In this document: positions 2,780 to 10,473 of the stretch, piece after piece | How positions within the stretch are numbered: the first letter of the stretch is position 1 | Layout of the letters: every line of letters begins with the position of its first letter | Origin: a virus | Lineage: Duplodnaviria > Heunggongvirae > Uroviricota > Caudoviricetes | Length of the DNA stretch: 11,010 bases | Reading direction: 5' to 3' (one strand) | IMG/VR virus record: IMGVR_UViG_2703718818_000014 | Coordinates: 1 to 11,010 of that record | Translations under genes and position numbers: made by a program | Notes under the pieces: generated by a model | Seen by the model: only the letters and a program-made list of their open reading frames with translations | Database searches by the model: none | What the model was told of the DNA's origin: nothing

Positions 2780-2971
2780 TTATCCTTTGGGTTCTATACC
2801 GCGCCGCTTTAGTTCAGTGCGCCCCAACTCTTTAAGCCAGTTGGCTAGGCTTATGCCGTCGCTCTGTGCTTCTTTATCGAATTGCTCTTTTAGCTCTGGA
2901 GAAATTCGCATTCTGAATTGTGGGGATTGCCCGTCCCCTTTAGGGCTTTTATCGCGTTTGATTGTTGACAA
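2780..2971 (-). CDS. Small ribbon-helix-helix (Arc/MetJ-like) DNA-binding protein, paralogue 2 (63 aa from TTG 2971; alternative ATG at 2911 gives 43 aa)
   Basis: Translation ...STIKRDKSPKGDGQSPQFRMRISPELKEQFDKEAQSDGISLANWLKELGRTELKRRGIEPKG, collinear with paralogue 1 including N-terminal (M)ST.K. AGGTGA lies 4 nt upstream of the TTG. Confidence 0.45.
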   Translation of the reverse strand: MSTIKRDKSPKGDGQSPQFRMRISPELKEQFDKEAQSDGISLANWLKELGRTELKRRGIEPKG

Positions 2972-2972
2972 G

Positions 2973-3013
2973 TGGTCACCTATTGAATTAGCCTTTCTAT
3001 TGTTAGGTGACCA
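2973..3013. promoter_or_regulatory. 10-bp inverted repeat, candidate operator (TGGTCACCTA ... TAGGTGACCA)
   Basis: Perfect 10-bp inverted repeat at 2973-2982 and 3004-3013 between the RHH paralogue 2 start and stem-loop B. The analogous position in module A has a different inverted repeat (TGTAATGT 2291-2298 / ACATTACA 2315-2322). Confidence 0.35.
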
Positions 3014-3042
3014 CCTTAACACAAGAGCACTTAAAAAAGCAA

Positions 3043-3075
3043 AGCCCCGCAAGTGTCATTACCACTCGCAGGGCT
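3043..3075. other. Conserved stem-loop B (paralogue of stem-loop A)
   Basis: AGCCC-c-GCAAGTG / CACTCGC-a-GGGCT. Same flanking sequence as stem-loop A; on the minus strand followed by TTTGCTTTTTT. Confidence 0.4.
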
Positions 3076-3105: not shown

Positions 3106-3663
3106 ATGGTTGCTGTAAATCATATACCACACCTTGTACACACACAAACGGCCTTTGTGTGGCGTTTTCTGGCCCTGAATATCGGAGAAAAAAACCAGTT
3201 GATCGCCAGTGTCGAAAATAGCTATGATTCCCGCGCACCTCATAAAACGGGTGCCGGGATTGGCGTCCTGGGCAAAACTGAAGCGCATAACACGCGCCCC
3301 GCGTGTTTTTTTGTGCCGCATAGTCACACCTTATCAATGGTGGGCTGTACGGGGGCGGAGCAATCCGCGCCGGTTTCTTCAGTGTCCGGTTACGCCAACC
3401 CTGTACAGTCCGCCACCAGCGAAATTGGCGTTTCCGGTGGCGGTTATCTTAACCACACTGAGGAGGCTGCCAACATGGCTACTATCCCTACCCTTGTACA
3501 TTCTCAAACCGCCTTTCTCTGGCGCTTTATCATCTTTGGCGCGTCAGAACATCAAATCATCCACGTAACCGCCTGGACGGAACGCGAAGCGCGTAACCGT
3601 TGCCCGTCAGGTTGTGTTGCTGTATTTGCCGCTCGTATTCGTCAGGGGTCACATCATGCGTAA
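3106..3663 (+). CDS. Tandem small-protein paralogue units B1 and B2 in one open frame (possible Icd-like proteins); B2 may initiate independently at 3475
   Basis: ATG 3106 with AGGAG 5 nt upstream. An internal ATG at 3475 has GAGGAGG 9 nt upstream and encodes MATIPTLVHSQTAFLWRFIIFGASEHQIIHVTAWTEREARNRCPSGCVAVFAARIRQG. B1 begins MVAVNHIPHLVHTQTAFVWRF..., and the frame stays open from 3106 to 3663 across an internal terminator-like hairpin. Family assignment is from memory of the motif only. Confidence 0.4.
   Translation: MVAVNHIPHLVHTQTAFVWRFLALNIGEKNQLIASVENSYDSRAPHKTGAGIGVLGKTEAHNTRPACFFVPHSHTLSMVGCTGAEQSAPVSSVSGYANPVQSATSEIGVSGGGYLNHTEEAANMATIPTLVHSQTAFLWRFIIFGASEHQIIHVTAWTEREARNRCPSGCVAVFAARIRQGSHHA
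3289..3312 (+). terminator. Intrinsic terminator / attenuator inside the B1-B2 leader
   Basis: Stem AACACGCG / CGCGTGTT with a short loop, followed by a T run (GTTTTTTTG). Confidence 0.5.
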
Positions 3664-3949
3664 AAACCGCTTGCAAAAAATTATCACGGGGCTGTATGCT
3701 TCCCCCGTCGCCCACATGGCGACCGGGTTTGACAGCCTGAATAAATTGGCGGACAGCCGCCCATATCCGATAAGCGGTTTTTTTGTGTCCGTAAACCTAC
3801 CCATACCCGCATTATGGCGGGGCGTAACGGGGGAGCCTTTGCGCTCGCTGGTTTCCCAATTTGCCAGTCTGTCAACCCTGTTACGTCTCGCCACCATGTT
3901 TGACAGCGTAGTAGCGAGACTCCTTAACATTAAATTGGGAGCCTTTCAC

Positions 3950-4807: not shown

Positions 4808-5107
4808 ATGAAACTTAAATATTCTGGCTTAACTGCCAGTGGCAACACTCACCCTAAATTTACGCGCGGTGATATTTACCGCGACCAGTACGGCGGCACG
4901 GTAATGATTAAGGGCGTGGAAGAACGGCGTGTAACCTACCGCCGTGAAGGTTACGAATATGATTGCGTGATGCCTGTTTATCAGTTCCGGCGTGATTTTT
5001 CTCTGGTACAGACCGCGCCGCATAACGTGCCCACCAGCAACGCCAGGGCACGGGCAAACATCCAGAAGCTGAAAACCATGATTAACGGATTCAGGGGTAA
5101 AAAATGA
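4808..5107 (+). CDS. Hypothetical small protein (99 aa), translationally coupled to the primase gene
   Basis: ATG 4808 with GGAGA upstream; its stop overlaps the primase start in an ATGA arrangement. Resembles from memory small conserved proteins found beside primase genes in P4-like islands (unverified). Confidence 0.5.
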   Translation: MKLKYSGLTASGNTHPKFTRGDIYRDQYGGTVMIKGVEERRVTYRREGYEYDCVMPVYQFRRDFSLVQTAPHNVPTSNARARANIQKLKTMINGFRGKK

Positions 5108-6858
5108 AACTGGCACCGAACGTAAAACAGCAGTCACGCGGCATAAAACACAAAGGAACAGAAGTCATTATTTTTGCGGGTAGTGATGCCTGGGCACACG
5201 CGAAACAATGGCAGGAACATGATGCGCGTATGGCCGGAGATAATGAGCCTCCTGTGTGGCTTGGGGAGCAGCAGTTATCAGAGCTGGATAAGCTGCAAAT
5301 TGTGCCGGAAGGCAGAAAATCCGTGCGCATATTCAGGGCCGGATATCTTGCGCCAGTAATGATAAAGGCGATTGGCCAGAAGCTGGCGGCGGCAGGCGTA
5401 CAGGATGCAAATTTTTACCCTGATGGTATGCACGGTCAGAAGGTGGAGAACTGGCGCGAATATCTGGCCCGTGAGCGCCAGAATCTTTCTGATGGTCTGG
5501 TCATTGAGCTTCCGGTAAAGCAAAAGGCGCAACTTTCGCAGATGGCGGACAGTGAGCGCGCGCAGCTGCTTGCCGATCGCTTTGATGGCGTTTGCGTACA
5601 TCCTGAAAGTGAAATCGTTCACGTATGGCGCGGCGGGGTATGGTGTCCGGTCAGCACAATGGAGCTTAGCCGCGAAATGGTGGCGATCTATTCAGAGCAC
5701 AGGGCCACTTTCAGCAAGCGCGTAATCAATAACGCCGTGGAAGCGTTAAAAGTTATTGCCGAACCAATGGGCGAGCCGTCCGGCGATTTGCTGCCGTTCG
5801 CCAATGGTGCGCTTGACCTGAAAACGGGGGAATTTTCCCCGCACACGCCGGAGAACTGGATCACCACGCACAACGGCATTGAGTACACGCCACCAGCACC
5901 AGGGGAGAACATCCGCGATAACGCGCCAAACTTTCATAAATGGCTTGAGCACGCAGCCGGAAAAGACCCGCGCAAGATGATGCGTATATGTGCCGCGCTG
6001 TACATGATTATGGCGAACCGGTACGACTGGCAGATGTTTATTGAGGCCACCGGAGACGGCGGGAGCGGTAAAAGTACATTCACGCACATAGCCAGCCTTC
6101 TGGCAGGGAAACAGAACACGGTAAGCGCTGAAATGACGTCGCTTGATGATGCTGGTGGACGTGCGCAGGTTGTCGGGAGTCGTCTTATCGTCCTGGCTGA
6201 CCAGCCGAAATATACAGGCGAAGGAACGGGCATCAAGAAAATCACGGGCGGTGACCCCGTGGAAATTAACCCGAAATACGAAAAGCGTTTCACGGCTGTA
6301 ATCAGGGCGGTGGTGCTGGCGACCAACAATAACCCGATGATATTCACCGAACGGGCCGGAGGTGTGGCACGTCGTCGCGTGATTTTCCGTTTCGACAATA
6401 TCGTCAGTGAGGCCGAAAAAGACAGGGAGCTACCGGAAAAGATTGCGGCTGAAATCCCTGTCATTATCCGCCGATTGCTGGCGAACTTTACCGACCCTGA
6501 GAAGGCACGGGCTTTACTACTGGAACAGCGTGACGGTGATGAAGCACTGGCAATAAAGCAACAGACGGATCCGGTTATTGAGTTTTGCCAGTTCCTGAAT
6601 TTTCTGGAGGAAGCACGCGGCCTGATGATGGGCGGCGGTGGCGATTCAGTGAAGTACACGACCAGAAACAGCCTTTACCGCGTCTATCTGGCGTTTATGG
6701 CGTACGCAGGCAGGAGCAAACCGCTAAACGTAAATGACTTTGGCAAGGCTATGAAGCCAGCCGCGAAAGTTTACGGACATGAATATATTACGCGGAAAGT
6801 TAAAGGAGTAACGCAGACTAACGCAATAACAACAGACGATTGCGACGCGTTTTTATAA
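5104..6858 (+). CDS. Replication protein: P4-alpha-family primase/helicase C-terminal-type P-loop NTPase (SF3/D5-like), 584 aa
   Basis: Walker A GDGGSGKST, Walker B-like RLIVLADQP and SF3 motif C VVLATNNNP in the C-terminal half; sits directly upstream of an iteron array. Confidence 0.85.
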   Translation: MKLAPNVKQQSRGIKHKGTEVIIFAGSDAWAHAKQWQEHDARMAGDNEPPVWLGEQQLSELDKLQIVPEGRKSVRIFRAGYLAPVMIKAIGQKLAAAGVQDANFYPDGMHGQKVENWREYLARERQNLSDGLVIELPVKQKAQLSQMADSERAQLLADRFDGVCVHPESEIVHVWRGGVWCPVSTMELSREMVAIYSEHRATFSKRVINNAVEALKVIAEPMGEPSGDLLPFANGALDLKTGEFSPHTPENWITTHNGIEYTPPAPGENIRDNAPNFHKWLEHAAGKDPRKMMRICAALYMIMANRYDWQMFIEATGDGGSGKSTFTHIASLLAGKQNTVSAEMTSLDDAGGRAQVVGSRLIVLADQPKYTGEGTGIKKITGGDPVEINPKYEKRFTAVIRAVVLATNNNPMIFTERAGGVARRRVIFRFDNIVSEAEKDRELPEKIAAEIPVIIRRLLANFTDPEKARALLLEQRDGDEALAIKQQTDPVIEFCQFLNFLEEARGLMMGGGGDSVKYTTRNSLYRVYLAFMAYAGRSKPLNVNDFGKAMKPAAKVYGHEYITRKVKGVTQTNAITTDDCDAFL

Positions 6859-6869
6859 TTTGTTGCAAT

Positions 6870-7100
6870 GGCTGTCTACCCTGTCTACCTGAGTAAAGAA
6901 AAATACATTTAATTCAGTACATTAACTTGGGTAGACAGCCTTTTTTTACTGTCTACCTACTATCTACCCTCTCTACCTGATTTTACCTGAATCAGACAGG
7001 GAGGTAGATACGGGGTAGATAGTGGATAAAAGCACTCTACCCCACTGAAAGCCGCGCCATTACTGGCATGGTGGCCAGTAAGGTAGATAAGGTAGACAAG
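6870..7100. repeat. Iteron array / candidate origin of replication
   Basis: At least 11 copies of the core TCTACC / GGTAGA (mostly as octamers TGTCTACC or GGTAGACA / GGTAGATA) in both orientations: 6873-6880, 6882-6889, 6930-6937, 6950-6957, 6961-6968, 6971-6977, 7003-7010, 7014-7021, 7035-7041, 7082-7089, 7091-7098. Perfect 12-bp inverted repeat GGCTGTCTACCC (6870-6881) / GGGTAGACAGCC (6929-6940) flanks an AT-rich spacer; further inverted repeat TTACTGGC / GCCAGTAA at 7060-7081. Confidence 0.7.
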
Positions 7101-7146
7101 GGGAGGCACAACTCAAAACTTTTTAAACGAGGGGGTAAAAATAAAA

Positions 7147-7404
7147 ATGCGCACATCAGGAAAACTTAATAATCAGAAGAAGCAGCATAACCGCGCCATT
7201 GACCTTACAGAGCACTGGCTGAGAGTGGCGATAAAAATCATCGACCGCAACACGGGGGAAGGATACGCGAAAGCACATCCCGAACTGATAAGCGCATTCA
7301 TGACCACGACGGCGGCAAACTTTGCCACGCTGACAGAACGGGAGATTGCCGAAGCGGAACAGGTAACAACCATCAACGTTAAAACCGGAGAGGTGGAATC
7401 ATGA
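7147..7404 (+). CDS. Hypothetical protein (85 aa), translationally coupled to ssb
   Basis: ATG 7147 with GAGGGGG upstream; its stop overlaps the SSB start (ATGA). Confidence 0.5.
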   Translation: MRTSGKLNNQKKQHNRAIDLTEHWLRVAIKIIDRNTGEGYAKAHPELISAFMTTTAANFATLTEREIAEAEQVTTINVKTGEVES

Positions 7405-7811
7405 CAGCACAGATAGCAGCTTACGGGCGGCTGGTGGACGACCCGCAGGTAAAACAGACCAGCAAGGGCACACCAATGACGCTGGCACGTATGGCGGTAT
7501 CGTTGCCATGTAGTCAGGCGCAGGATGGGCAGGCTACGTTATGGCTATCGGTGATGGCATTTGGTAAGCAGGCCGACTTCCTGGCTAAACATCAAAAAGG
7601 CGACGTTGCCAGCGTATCCGGCACGATGCAGGTCAGCCAGTGGACCGGACAGAACGGGGAAATGCGGCAGGGTTATCAGGTTATTGCAGACAGCGTAATC
7701 AGTGCCCGTGCGGCACGTCCTGGCGGGAACAGACGCAAAACCACAGGCACACAGGGTAATCAGCCACCAGCGGGAGACGATGACCCCTACGGTGATGATA
7801 TTCCGTTCTGA
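7401..7811 (+). CDS. ssb: Single-stranded DNA-binding protein (SSB) homologue, 136 aa
   Basis: Strong Shine-Dalgarno GGAGAGGTGGA; OB-fold-like pattern (GRLVDDPQV ... FGKQADFLAKHQKGDVASVSGTMQVSQWTGQNGEMRQGYQVIADSV); C-terminus DDDPYGDDIPF matches the SSB acidic tail (DDDIPF). Confidence 0.8.
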   Translation: MTAQIAAYGRLVDDPQVKQTSKGTPMTLARMAVSLPCSQAQDGQATLWLSVMAFGKQADFLAKHQKGDVASVSGTMQVSQWTGQNGEMRQGYQVIADSVISARAARPGGNRRKTTGTQGNQPPAGDDDPYGDDIPF

Positions 7812-7819
7812 ACGCACAG

Positions 7820-7841
7820 GCCGGAGAAAATCCGGCTTTTT
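7820..7841 (+). terminator. Rho-independent terminator after ssb
   Basis: GCCGGA gaaaa TCCGGC followed by TTTTT; almost identical to the hairpin at 9731-9753. Confidence 0.75.
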
Positions 7842-7845
7842 GTAT

Positions 7846-7893
7846 CCAAAAAAAGCCCGATAAGTACAGGAGGAAGCTTATCGGGCTTTTGCT
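7846..7893. terminator. Bidirectional terminator-like hairpin
   Basis: 11-bp perfect stem AGCCCGATAAG / CTTATCGGGCT (7853-7863 / 7877-7887) flanked by an A7 run upstream and TTTTGCTT downstream. Confidence 0.65.
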
Positions 7894-7964
7894 TACGAGG
7901 TTAACAGCATGGTGACTACTGTTGCTGTAAATTATTTCATAATTTGCAACGCAACTCAATTTCA

Positions 7965-8025
7965 TTGCACAAAATGCAATCATGATTATAATCACAACTG
8001 GATGAACATCCAGTTATGGTTTTTT
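7965..8025 (+). promoter_or_regulatory. Candidate promoter and leader hairpin of the capsid operon
   Basis: -35 TTGCAC (7965-7970), 16-bp spacer, perfect -10 TATAAT (7987-7992); directly downstream an 8-bp stem AACTGGAT / ATCCAGTT (7996-8015) followed by a T6 run (8020-8025). Confidence 0.3.
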
Positions 8026-8048
8026 AAGTCAAAGAGGAATTTCTGACT

Positions 8049-8255
8049 ATGGCTGAAGAGAAAAAAGGCGGTGTTTCGGTGTACATAAGCCCCGAAATCG
8101 TGGAGGTGCTCAAGCAGCGCCACAAAAAAAACTATGAGGCTGGCGTAGCGGCTGGACTGGATCCGCTGATGACGCCGGAGCCGTCGATAGGTTCACTTGT
8201 GCGCTCTTATTTACTTGCGGCGCTTGGGATGCATAAAAATTATGGGGGTGAATAA
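8049..8255 (+). CDS. Hypothetical protein (68 aa), first gene of the capsid operon
   Basis: ATG 8049 with AGAGGA upstream; its stop overlaps the capsid gene start (TAATG). No family recognised. Confidence 0.5.
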   Translation: MAEEKKGGVSVYISPEIVEVLKQRHKKNYEAGVAAGLDPLMTPEPSIGSLVRSYLLAALGMHKNYGGE

Positions 8256-9310
8256 TGACAGGCAAAGCAACGGCACTTAACACTAACCAGCTTTTCATGT
8301 ACCTGAATCGCGGGGATATTGCGGATTTTAAATTCAGCCCTCTGTTTACTACGCTGTTTTTCCCGAACGTGGCGACATTCAGCACGCAAAACATCATGCT
8401 GGACACCCTGGACATTGAAGAGGTTACGATGTCGGCGTTTTGTTCGCCTATGGTGGGTAGTCAGGTCCAGCGCGATAAAGGGTACGAAACCAGCACGATT
8501 AAACCTGGATACATGAAGCCGAAGCACGAAATCGATCCAACGAAAACCATCATGCGCATGGCCGGAGAAGATCCGGCACAGCTTAACGACCCTACCTATC
8601 GCCGTATGCGCCTGATTACTGGCAATATGCGCCGCCAGGTAAACGCCATAAAAGCGCGCGTGGAATGGCTGGCGGTAAATGCGGTAACGACCGGAAAAAA
8701 CATCATTGAGGGCGAAGGCATAGAACGCTATGAAATCGACTGGAAGATACCGGAAAAAAACATCATAGAGCAGGCCGACGGTAAAAAATGGTCTGAGCAG
8801 GATAAAGACATACACGACCCAATATATGACATTGAACTATACGCAGATCAGGCAGGTTGCCCCGCCAACGTCATGATTATGGGCGTTGATGTATGGCGCA
8901 TGTTACGCAGCTTTAAAAAATTCCGTGAACTGTACGATCTCTCCCGTGGTTCAGAATCCGCCGCAGAGCTGGCATGTAAAAACCTGGGCGAAGTGGTGAG
9001 CTTTAAAGGCTATCTTGGTGATCTGGCCCTTATCGTCTATTCCGGCAAATACACTGACAGCGACGGCACAGAAAAATATTTCCTTGAGCCTGATTTGCTG
9101 GTCCTGGGCAACACCAACAATAAAGGGCTGGTGGCCTATGGTGCGATTATGGAACAGGAAGCGGTAAGAACGGGCGCAACGCAAAACATGTTTTACCCGA
9201 AAAACTGGATTGAAGACGGCGATCCGGCGATTGAGTACGTGCAGACACACAGCGCACCGCAGCCTGTTCCGGCAGATATTCGAAAATTTGTTACCGTCAA
9301 AATTGGTTAA
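8255..9310 (+). CDS. Major capsid protein, phage lambda gpE family (351 aa)
   Basis: Collinear with lambda gpE as I remember it: FKFSPLFTTLFF vs FKFDPLFLRLFF; PGYMKPKHEIDPTKTIMR vs PGYVKPKHEVNPQMTLRR; DPTYRRMRLITGNMR vs DPAYRRRRIIMQNMR; C-terminal YPKNWIEDGDPAIEY vs YPKNWVTTGDPAREF. Length close to gpE (341 aa). Confidence 0.9.
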   Translation: MTGKATALNTNQLFMYLNRGDIADFKFSPLFTTLFFPNVATFSTQNIMLDTLDIEEVTMSAFCSPMVGSQVQRDKGYETSTIKPGYMKPKHEIDPTKTIMRMAGEDPAQLNDPTYRRMRLITGNMRRQVNAIKARVEWLAVNAVTTGKNIIEGEGIERYEIDWKIPEKNIIEQADGKKWSEQDKDIHDPIYDIELYADQAGCPANVMIMGVDVWRMLRSFKKFRELYDLSRGSESAAELACKNLGEVVSFKGYLGDLALIVYSGKYTDSDGTEKYFLEPDLLVLGNTNNKGLVAYGAIMEQEAVRTGATQNMFYPKNWIEDGDPAIEYVQTHSAPQPVPADIRKFVTVKIG

Positions 9311-9321
9311 CGGTGGATTCT

Positions 9322-9657
9322 ATGAACACTCCATACATTGAGTTATTTGCAGGCAGTCAGCAGGTATCAACGACACTGGTACATTTTGCCGCTGATGCTG
9401 GCGTTATTCAGGAATTTACCCCGCTGATGCTGGCGGACAATGGCGAGTTTAAGCCGTGGGATGGTCAGGAATCTGGCAAGGCTGTTTATCTGACCTCGTA
9501 CCCCGTTGACACGTCGACGCAGAAATCAGCACAGTGCTATAAGACGGGGATATTTAATATCGCCGCCGTTAACTGGCCTGAGAGCGTCGACACCGATGCG
9601 AAAAAATGCGCCGCCTTTGCGGGTTCTGGCGTATCCGTTCAGCCGCTGGCGCGATAA
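9322..9657 (+). CDS. Head decoration protein, phage lambda gpD family (about 111 aa; alternative GTG start at 9313)
   Basis: TPLMLADNGEFKPWDG vs lambda gpD TPLMLDTSSRKLVAWDG; YKTGIFNIAAVNWPESVDTDAKKCAAFAGSGVSV vs [35 protein letters not shown]. Sits immediately after the capsid gene. Confidence 0.85.
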   Translation: MNTPYIELFAGSQQVSTTLVHFAADAGVIQEFTPLMLADNGEFKPWDGQESGKAVYLTSYPVDTSTQKSAQCYKTGIFNIAAVNWPESVDTDAKKCAAFAGSGVSVQPLAR

Positions 9658-9930: not shown

Positions 9931-10473
9931 ATGAAATCGCACCTGATGAACAAAAAAAACATGGCGAAAAGCTGCCGTGTAAGTGCGACAGCGTTCGACA
10001 AGTGGGGAGTGACTCCCGTTGAACGTAAAGGCCGTGAGGCGTTTTATGATGTTGCCAGCGTGATAGACAATAGGGTTAACAATGCAATTAGCCAGCTTAC
10101 AAACGACAAAGGCGATATTGATGATGCTGAACTCTTACGAGTCAGGATCAGATTACTGACAGCACAGGCGGAGGCGCAGGAACTTAAAAACGAGCGCGAT
10201 CGCGGTGACGTGATTGATACTGAGTTTTGCCTGTACGCGCTTTCAAAGCTGGCGAGTCAGATTTCATCAATCATGGACAGCCTCCCGCTTAATATGCAAA
10301 GGAGCTTCCCACAGATTCCCCCCGCCATGCTGGACAGGCTTAAAAGGGAAGTGGTTAAAGCCTGTAATGGCAGTGCCAGAGTTGCCGACAACCTCCCACA
10401 GATACTGGCTGATTACTTGAAAGAAACAACCGGAAACGTACCGGAAAAGTTGCTACAGAAGAAAGGCGAGTAA
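9931..10473 (+). CDS. Terminase small subunit, lambda gpNu1 family (180 aa; homologous start may be ATG 9946)
   Basis: C-terminal two-thirds collinear with lambda Nu1: LTAQAEAQELKNERDRGDVIDTEFCLYALSKLASQISSIMDSLPLNMQRSFP vs LTRAQADAQELKNARDSAEVVETAFCTFVLSRIAGEIASILDGLPLSVQRRFP. The N-terminal DNA-binding region is recognisably related but far more divergent. No obvious Shine-Dalgarno at either start. Confidence 0.88.
   Translation: MKSHLMNKKNMAKSCRVSATAFDKWGVTPVERKGREAFYDVASVIDNRVNNAISQLTNDKGDIDDAELLRVRIRLLTAQAEAQELKNERDRGDVIDTEFCLYALSKLASQISSIMDSLPLNMQRSFPQIPPAMLDRLKREVVKACNGSARVADNLPQILADYLKETTGNVPEKLLQKKGE

Follow-up and report, generated by a model that had tools for sequence, protein, structure and literature searches.

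The 11,010-nucleotide stretch of DNA analysed here (the window) is an EcCICFT073-like Gram-negative PICI of E. coli, i.e. a phage satellite, and the last gene of its replication transcription unit encodes a bona fide bacterial-type single-stranded DNA-binding protein (SSB) of 136 amino acids. The best explanation for this gene, and one that is probably correct, is that its product is an accessory SSB of the satellite replication module, which recruits host partners via its acidic C-terminal tip. What the analysis shows directly is the identity of the gene, its fold and tip, its synteny and conservation, and the purifying selection acting on it. The features of the window to which the argument refers are as follows.

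1-1242, + strand: integrase (PF00589, NF007246)
1739-1945, + strand: AlpA-like ORF (weak match, 17.8 bits, below the cut-off of 21)
3235-3898: two C4 antisense RNAs, isrK and a c4-a1b1 target among Icd-like ORFs (Rfam)
4808-5107, + strand: DUF4222 protein (profile matches)
5104-6858, + strand: Pri-Rep, P4-family primase/D5_N/DUF5906 (SF3-type helicase)
6859-7146: intergenic region with iterons
6875-7096, both orientations: replication origin with 11 TCTACC iterons
7147-7404, + strand: ORF85, phrog_1231 family
7387-7397, + strand: Shine-Dalgarno (SD)-like GGAGAGGTGGA for SSB, within the 3' end of ORF85 (read from the sequence)
7401-7811, + strand: SSB ORF, 136 amino acids (PF00436, TIGR00621, phrog_44)
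7401-7712, + strand: OB-fold domain of SSB, residues 1-104 (PF00436 over residues 5-99, AlphaFold2, Foldseek)
7713-7775, + strand: disordered linker of SSB, residues 105-125 (pLDDT below 50)
7776-7811, + strand: acidic C-terminal tip of SSB, DDDPYGDDIPF, and stop codon (sequence)
7818-7838 with a T-run, and 7853-7887 with TTTT, + strand: two tandem terminator-like hairpins (terminator scan)
8255-9310, + strand: lambda-E-like capsid protein (profile matches)
9313-9657, + strand: D-like decoration protein (profile matches)
9931-10473, + strand: Nu1-like protein (PF07471, phrog_57)

The integrase, the AlpA-like gene, the P4-family primase and the capsid and decoration homologues are satellite hallmarks, and the original prediction that the SSB is carried by a satellite thus holds, with the element identified as an EcCICFT073-type PICI. 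The layout is that of a Gram-negative PICI, with the integrase at one end, an AlpA-like ORF (weak) and one-strand genes, every assigned gene of the window lying on the + strand. As in other PICIs, the pri-rep gene is followed by an iteron origin. The label cf-PICI was considered and dropped, because the window stops with only a capsid, a decoration and a Nu1-like gene in view, and the first two of these are also present in classical EcCICFT073. Helper-phage-dependent induction, packaging and transfer have been experimentally shown for EcCICFT073 itself only (PMC6092414, PMC6739421).

Several features outside the replication genes were also recorded. At 3235-3898, RNAs are interleaved with repeated Icd-like ORFs: Rfam places isrK RNA at 3235-3311, C4 antisense RNAs at 3333-3420 and 3810-3898, and a c4-a1b1 target at 3694-3743, an arrangement resembling a duplicated RNA immunity region of the P1/P4 type within the PICI. 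Two small ORFs on the minus strand (2096-2275 and 2780-3052) have a common C-terminal motif, ...LA(A/N)W(I/L)K...EL(Q/K)(Q/R)RGIEPKG; the CFT073 counterpart is annotated as belonging to the YlcI/YnfO family, and one of the two has a weak, sub-threshold HicB match. Additionally, the Nu1-like small-terminase homologue (180 amino acids, 9931-10473) occupies the position of RppA (c1503) in EcCICFT073, and tblastn found no counterpart of it in the CFT073 locus. With this protein in place of RppA, the packaging-redirection module differs from that of the prototype EcCICFT073.

The SSB ORF (7401-7811, + strand) encodes a protein with the C-terminus ...QPPAGDDDPYGDDIPF. It had originally been described as a 136-amino-acid, OB-fold-like protein ending in DDDPYGDDIPF, and both the coordinates and the description are correct. 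The profile search passes the cut-offs of PF00436 (60.5 bits versus 26) and TIGR00621 (58.2 bits versus 53.95), the protein matches phrog_44 (E=7e-40), a family named 'single strand DNA binding protein', and there are sequence matches to 24 PDB SSB sequences. Structure prediction likewise finds the OB fold, whose absence would have counted against the original description. An AlphaFold2 model made from 18 homologues (pTM 0.62) has an OB beta-barrel with one helix over residues 1-100, composed of strands 2-11, 16-19, 25-35 and 45-54, a helix at 55-62, and strands 69-82 and 88-101; block-mean pLDDT is mostly 84-94, falling to 73-75 across the loop region of residues 31-50, and residues 105-128 and 131-136 are predicted to be disordered (pLDDT below 50). 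In a Foldseek search against the PDB, the best 50 matches are all bacterial SSBs (probability 1.00, E down to 2.4e-9), and the five-stranded barrel with its capping helix can be superimposed on solved SSBs.

Conservation among homologues follows the same division into core, linker and tip. The aromatic residues W48, F54 and W81 are invariant, and three of the four ssDNA-stacking positions of E. coli SSB are kept; the protein is predicted to bind ssDNA. The linker comprises approximately 20-25 residues, and indels are confined to it, giving homologues of 122-149 amino acids. The canonical acidic ...DDIPF tip, which had been noted from the outset, is present and conserved: about 110 of the 120 homologues listed end in a (D/N)IPF-type tip or a near variant, and D132, P135 and F136 are invariant in the alignment.

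The gene stands in a clear replicative context. Pri-Rep matches PF08706, PF19263 and PF03288 (Pfam), TIGR01613 (109.1 bits versus a cut-off of 108.7) and the DNA primase family phrog_864, is 99.3% identical to the EcCICFT073 primase, and is the replication initiator, with its gene immediately 5' of the origin. The window has 11 TCTACC sites, and every one of them lies in 6875-7096, in both orientations; 2.5 would be expected in the whole window, and none of 200 shuffles reached 11. The origin region also contains repeat families and inverted arms, and the GC profile is at 30% in 6880-6939. The DNA from 6860 to 7811 is 99.3% identical to the EcCICFT073 region downstream of pri, within which the functionally tested EcCICFT073 origin falls (PMC6092414). 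In that element, rep and ori maintain a plasmid, and deletion of either impairs maintenance (Fillol-Salom et al. 2018, PMC6092414); the iteron origin of the window fits the PICI origin organisation of the same study. The ORF85-SSB pair starts approximately 50 nt 3' of the iteron origin, after the P4-family primase-helicase, and the proposed location of the SSB next to an origin is thus borne out.

Comparison with EcCICFT073 extends through the SSB gene and stops there. The gene order of pri, iteron ori, ORF85 (with ATGA overlap) and SSB is common to both elements; EcCICFT073 SSB (WP_000126698.1) is identical to the window SSB at 134 of 136 residues, and the hypothetical protein upstream of it (WP_001260558.1) to ORF85 at 82 of 85, whereas the EcCICFT073 integrase is of another type and only 25% identical. 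RefSeq annotates the two CFT073 genes as 'hypothetical protein' followed by 'single-stranded DNA-binding protein'. The similarity to EcCICFT073 breaks off precisely at the stop codon of SSB (window 7811-8048). In CFT073, perC follows after 10 nt, whereas the window has the two terminator hairpins and an AT-rich spacer, followed by the packaging genes, forming a sharp mosaic junction after SSB.

ORF85 and SSB are tightly arranged. As originally proposed, the 85-amino-acid upstream ORF overlaps the SSB start, the TGA stop of ORF85 sharing 4 nt (ATGA) with the SSB ATG. A GAGG lies 7 nt 5' of this ATG, inside ORF85, and judging from the sequence GGAGAGGTGGA may serve as the SSB ribosome-binding site. 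Translation of the two genes may be coupled through the ATGA overlap. Another SD-like sequence, GAGGGGG, is found at 7129-7135, 11 nt 5' of the ORF85 start. On the + strand, the terminator scan detected no terminator-like site from the 3' end of the primase gene as far as the stop codon of SSB. The hairpins at 7818-7887 (RNA fold -38.1 kcal/mol, z = -5.05) are putative terminators of the early/replication transcription unit, and SSB is the last gene of that unit, which runs ...DUF4222, Pri-Rep primase-helicase, iteron ori, ORF85, SSB, terminators.

The same arrangement recurs in a set of 80 IMG/VR loci with an ORF85 homologue at 80% identity or above; a separate scan of genome contigs, with search patterns drawn too narrowly, gave just 4 loci. 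SSB lies directly 3' of ORF85 in 76 of the 80 loci, and the same 4-nt overlap is conserved in 63 of these 76 pairs. Nine pairs have an 11-nt gap and two a 311-nt insertion, and for the remaining two the computation gave an overlap of 8 nt at a codon other than ATG, which is probably an artefact of start back-extension. At one locus the contig ends short of the SSB position, and at three (L063, L066 and L069) ORF85 is followed directly by perC. Across the 80 loci, the upstream primase ranges from 27% to 99% identity to that of the window, and the ORF85-SSB pair thus travels among different replicons. Each gene also occurs without the other; for instance, in satellites of E. albertii and of Klebsiella, SSB without ORF85 lies directly 3' of other primases. 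SSB follows primase and ori in satellites of at least four primase types (584 amino acids; 711 amino acids, E. albertii; 942 amino acids, P4-alpha-like, Klebsiella; and 816 amino acids, Klebsiella).

Variants of the cassette were seen in Klebsiella and elsewhere. In K. pneumoniae NZ_CP033626.1 (locus L177, 7212-8035), a non-homologous ORF of 126 amino acids occupies the position of ORF85 and shares 4 nt with the start of SSB, and the SSB tail reads ...PPFDDSIPL; a homologue of the 126-amino-acid protein adjoins an ORF85-like gene in a metagenomic locus (L149). This record (22.9 kb) and OW969629.1 (L176, 10.6 kb) are circular and filed as non-mobilizable 'plasmids' with a satellite-type primase-SSB module. 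L177 also carries integrase, Icd-like, DUF4222 and PerC genes, and the L176 SSB is truncated to 104 amino acids and has no tip. Instead of plasmids, both may be satellites in an excised or episomal state. In four IMG/VR loci (L011, L055, L058 and L077), SSB is truncated or frameshifted before the acidic tip in an otherwise intact cassette.

These truncated genes, together with the three loci in which SSB is missing, would be expected if SSB and ORF85 were a decaying remnant of a prophage replication module, carried along with no current function. Such a reading is highly improbable given the remainder of the set: 68 of the 76 SSB genes have an ATG start and an uninterrupted frame down to a ...PF end, and the ATGA overlap is retained in most pairs. 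Over hundreds of pairs, median pairwise NG86 dN/dS is 0.18 for SSB and 0.19 for ORF85, low values that mark both as real genes under purifying selection. Furthermore, megablast finds SSB-homologous DNA in 1103 of 5426 complete E. coli genomes, about a fifth, with 1369 of 1370 such places being chromosomal; only 21 plasmid records have a relative of SSB. Among 50,697 phage records, tblastn gave no match to ORF85 or a distant relative of it, and no close relative of SSB was found, every match being below 60% identity; the phage SSB matches are mostly to Firmicute phage SSBs, and the best among the matches listed has approximately 35% identity. Therefore, neither SSB nor ORF85 appears to be a recent copy from a sequenced phage.

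The replication module also frames what can be said of ORF85. Its product matches phrog_1231 over residues 6-85 (E=1.4e-47) with the core motif ...ID..G-EGYAKAHPELISAFM-TAA-NF, and has no match in Pfam or NCBIfam and no PDB sequence match (best E=1.2). The AlphaFold2 model is a low-confidence helical hairpin (pLDDT 60, pTM 0.27), so the small protein is probably helical. A profile search of 1.84 billion representative proteins returned 770 relatives at E<=1e-3, giving a family of at least 770 clusters at 50% identity. These are mostly 60-190 amino acids long, with the core ...A(I/V)xxID..(F/L)G(E/D)GYAKxHPEL(I/V)AAFMxTAAxDF; distant members also match phrog_1231, a function-unknown family, and are placed in early/replication regions of metagenomic and viral contigs. 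Their direct neighbours include DUF5906 helicases (four times), VapE-like, Prim-Pol/PriCT_2 and PolA proteins, and SNF2 helicases, which ties the family to replication modules generally. In contrast, the 55 direct neighbours include just one PF00436 SSB and a single Enc34-type ssDNA binder, and tblastn detects PICI-type SSBs in only 2 of 90 distant loci. A role for ORF85 as a universal partner of SSBs was therefore rejected, primase, helicase and polymerase neighbours being commoner than SSBs and the Klebsiella satellites having a non-homologous 126-amino-acid ORF at the same overlapping position. Tight ORF85-SSB pairing instead characterises enterobacterial satellites.

Beyond its first 12-15 residues, ORF85 is nearly invariant. 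Those N-terminal residues come in three classes, MHTSGKLN.., MTAKHTKK.. and MK.NRKQPHY.. (window 7147-7190; loci L006-L085), and the classes track both the type of primase encoded upstream and whether TCTACC iterons are present. The classes reflect either a breakpoint of recombination inside the gene or replicon-specific contacts. In view of the neighbours of its distant members, ORF85 is most likely an accessory protein of the replication module, with Pri-Rep, SSB or DNA as candidate partners. A bolder and rather unlikely proposal is that ORF85 and phrog_1231 constitute an unrecognised replisome accessory factor of phages and satellites, e.g. an adaptor between the SF3/D5 primase-helicase and SSB-coated DNA, that in enterobacterial satellites later became translation-coupled to a dedicated SSB. 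A replicon-specific N-terminus and an invariant C-terminal part would fit such a two-faced adaptor, and an intragenic recombination breakpoint fits them equally.

With regard to SSB itself, a role as replication accessory is indicated by co-orientation with Pri-Rep, by terminators that occur only after SSB, and by a position 3' of primase and ori that does not depend on the type of primase; it is also indicated by the retention of both a DNA-binding core and a host-docking tip. On this basis, induction by a helper phage would lead Pri-Rep to bind the TCTACC iterons, melt the AT-rich core and unwind the island. The island SSB, made in step with ORF85 via the ATGA overlap, would coat the single strands exposed by the island helicase, and its ...DDIPF tip would dock host SSB-interacting proteins, e.g. 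the chi subunit of Pol III and other E. coli SSB partners. Docking of host partners through the SSB tip is established for E. coli SSB. Replication of the satellite could in this way become less dependent on a limited host SSB pool while the helper also replicates.

Synteny favours this replication role, but it amounts to guilt by association. In PICIs, the genes 3' of ori frequently have interference or accessory functions. SSB is accessory and not essential, since EcCICFT073 rep and ori alone maintain a plasmid (PMC6092414), 3 of the 80 loci do without SSB and several alleles are truncated. Because pri and ori suffice without it, the contribution of SSB may be small or conditional.

The same dispensability for rep-ori function (PMC6092414) would be expected if SSB were not a fork protein and its tip instead served mainly to titrate away, or else redirect, the host proteins that interact with SSB (ExoI, RecJ, RecQ, PriA, chi and UDG). 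This is an unlikely role; its outcome would be to shield satellite DNA intermediates or to handicap the DNA metabolism of helper or host. A canonical tip that is strongly conserved, joined to a linker that is free to vary, would suit a competitor of this kind, and a phage SSB-like protein with an FDDDIPF tip has been proposed to disturb ExoI-dependent processes (bioRxiv 10.64898/2026.04.29.721553). However, the ssDNA-contacting aromatics and the whole OB core are as constrained as the tip, which a pure tip decoy would not need, and the position of SSB is always within the replication module. The 2019 EcCICFT073 screen was considered as an exclusion of a role in lambda interference and was rejected for that purpose, as primer mapping places its clones from the capsid gene c1499; the published interference screen starts 3' of SSB, with SSB and ORF85 lying outside it.

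Phage SSB-like proteins with a C-terminal tip can also trigger DRT10 (bioRxiv 10.64898/2026.04.29.721553), and PICIs are described in general terms as carriers of accessory and defence-related genes (PMC10085698, PMC6092414). Both observations would accord with an SSB that counteracts, or is sensed by, host anti-phage systems of retron or DRT type and so shapes which hosts a satellite-helper pair can use. This is improbable, more so than competition for host partners, because there is no defence-gene link in the window or the related loci, where the neighbours are primase, ori, perC or packaging genes. The preferred reading remains that of an accessory SSB acting in satellite replication.

SSB was already known as an annotation (RefSeq) and is near-identical to a gene of the best-studied Gram-negative PICI, and its identification in itself adds little. 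A survey by Barcia-Cruz et al., 2023 lists SSB, Primase and DUF5906 under 'Replication' in Gram-negative PICIs (PMC10111431). The other PICI, cf-PICI and satellite papers checked make no mention of SSB, and the literature searched contained no functional study, by deletion or assay, of a PICI SSB or of ORF85. What is new is that the conservation of the ORF85-SSB cassette has been put in numbers, that the cassette is seen to move among replicon types, and that ORF85 has been assigned to a large, uncharacterised family linked to replication modules. If SSB matters for satellite replication or for competition for host replisome partners, it would represent one way in which satellites secure resources beside their helper. 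Similarly, if ORF85 is a replisome accessory factor, an annotation would become available for a large family of phage proteins that have no assigned function.

Overall, the satellite SSB resembles known SSBs in plan and differs from them in detail. It has an OB fold, a disordered linker and an acidic ...DDIPF tip in common with E. coli SSB (P0AGE0), to which it is only 26% identical. W48, F54 and W81 align with the base-stacking W54, F60 and W88 of E. coli SSB, whereas W40 is replaced by C37 and H55, a tetramer residue, by L49, and the W40 loop is three residues shorter. With W40 and H55 not conserved and the loop shortened, the binding mode and the stability of the predicted oligomer may differ from those of E. 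coli SSB. The satellite protein is also shorter (136 versus 178 amino acids), with a linker of ~20-25 rather than ~60 residues, and it scores 25.9 bits against the enterobacterial SSB subfamily model NF006533, far under the cut-off of 260.

The best structural matches are to the short Firmicute SSBs, namely SsbA and SsbB of S. aureus and of B. subtilis, which have a compact OB domain of ~100 residues, target-normalised TM-scores of 0.73-0.78 and 24-28% identity to the satellite SSB. This match concerns the OB core only, as the solved chains span 97-112 residues and have no tail to compare, and the Firmicute proteins differ in host lineage and genomic context. The DRT10 trigger Bas52_0087 is likewise an SSB-like fold from a mobile element with a C-terminal FDDDIPF-type tip, a likeness drawn from its published description; it has two OB folds and is much larger than the satellite SSB. 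Membership in the conjugative-plasmid SSB family (NF010292/PRK13732) was rejected, at 24.9 bits versus a cut-off of 265. Plasmid SSBs can complement host ssb mutants. The SSBs of F-type conjugative plasmids lie in the plasmid leading region, whereas the satellite SSB adjoins a vegetative iteron origin, and yet both are SSBs of mobile elements that have retained a host-type tip.
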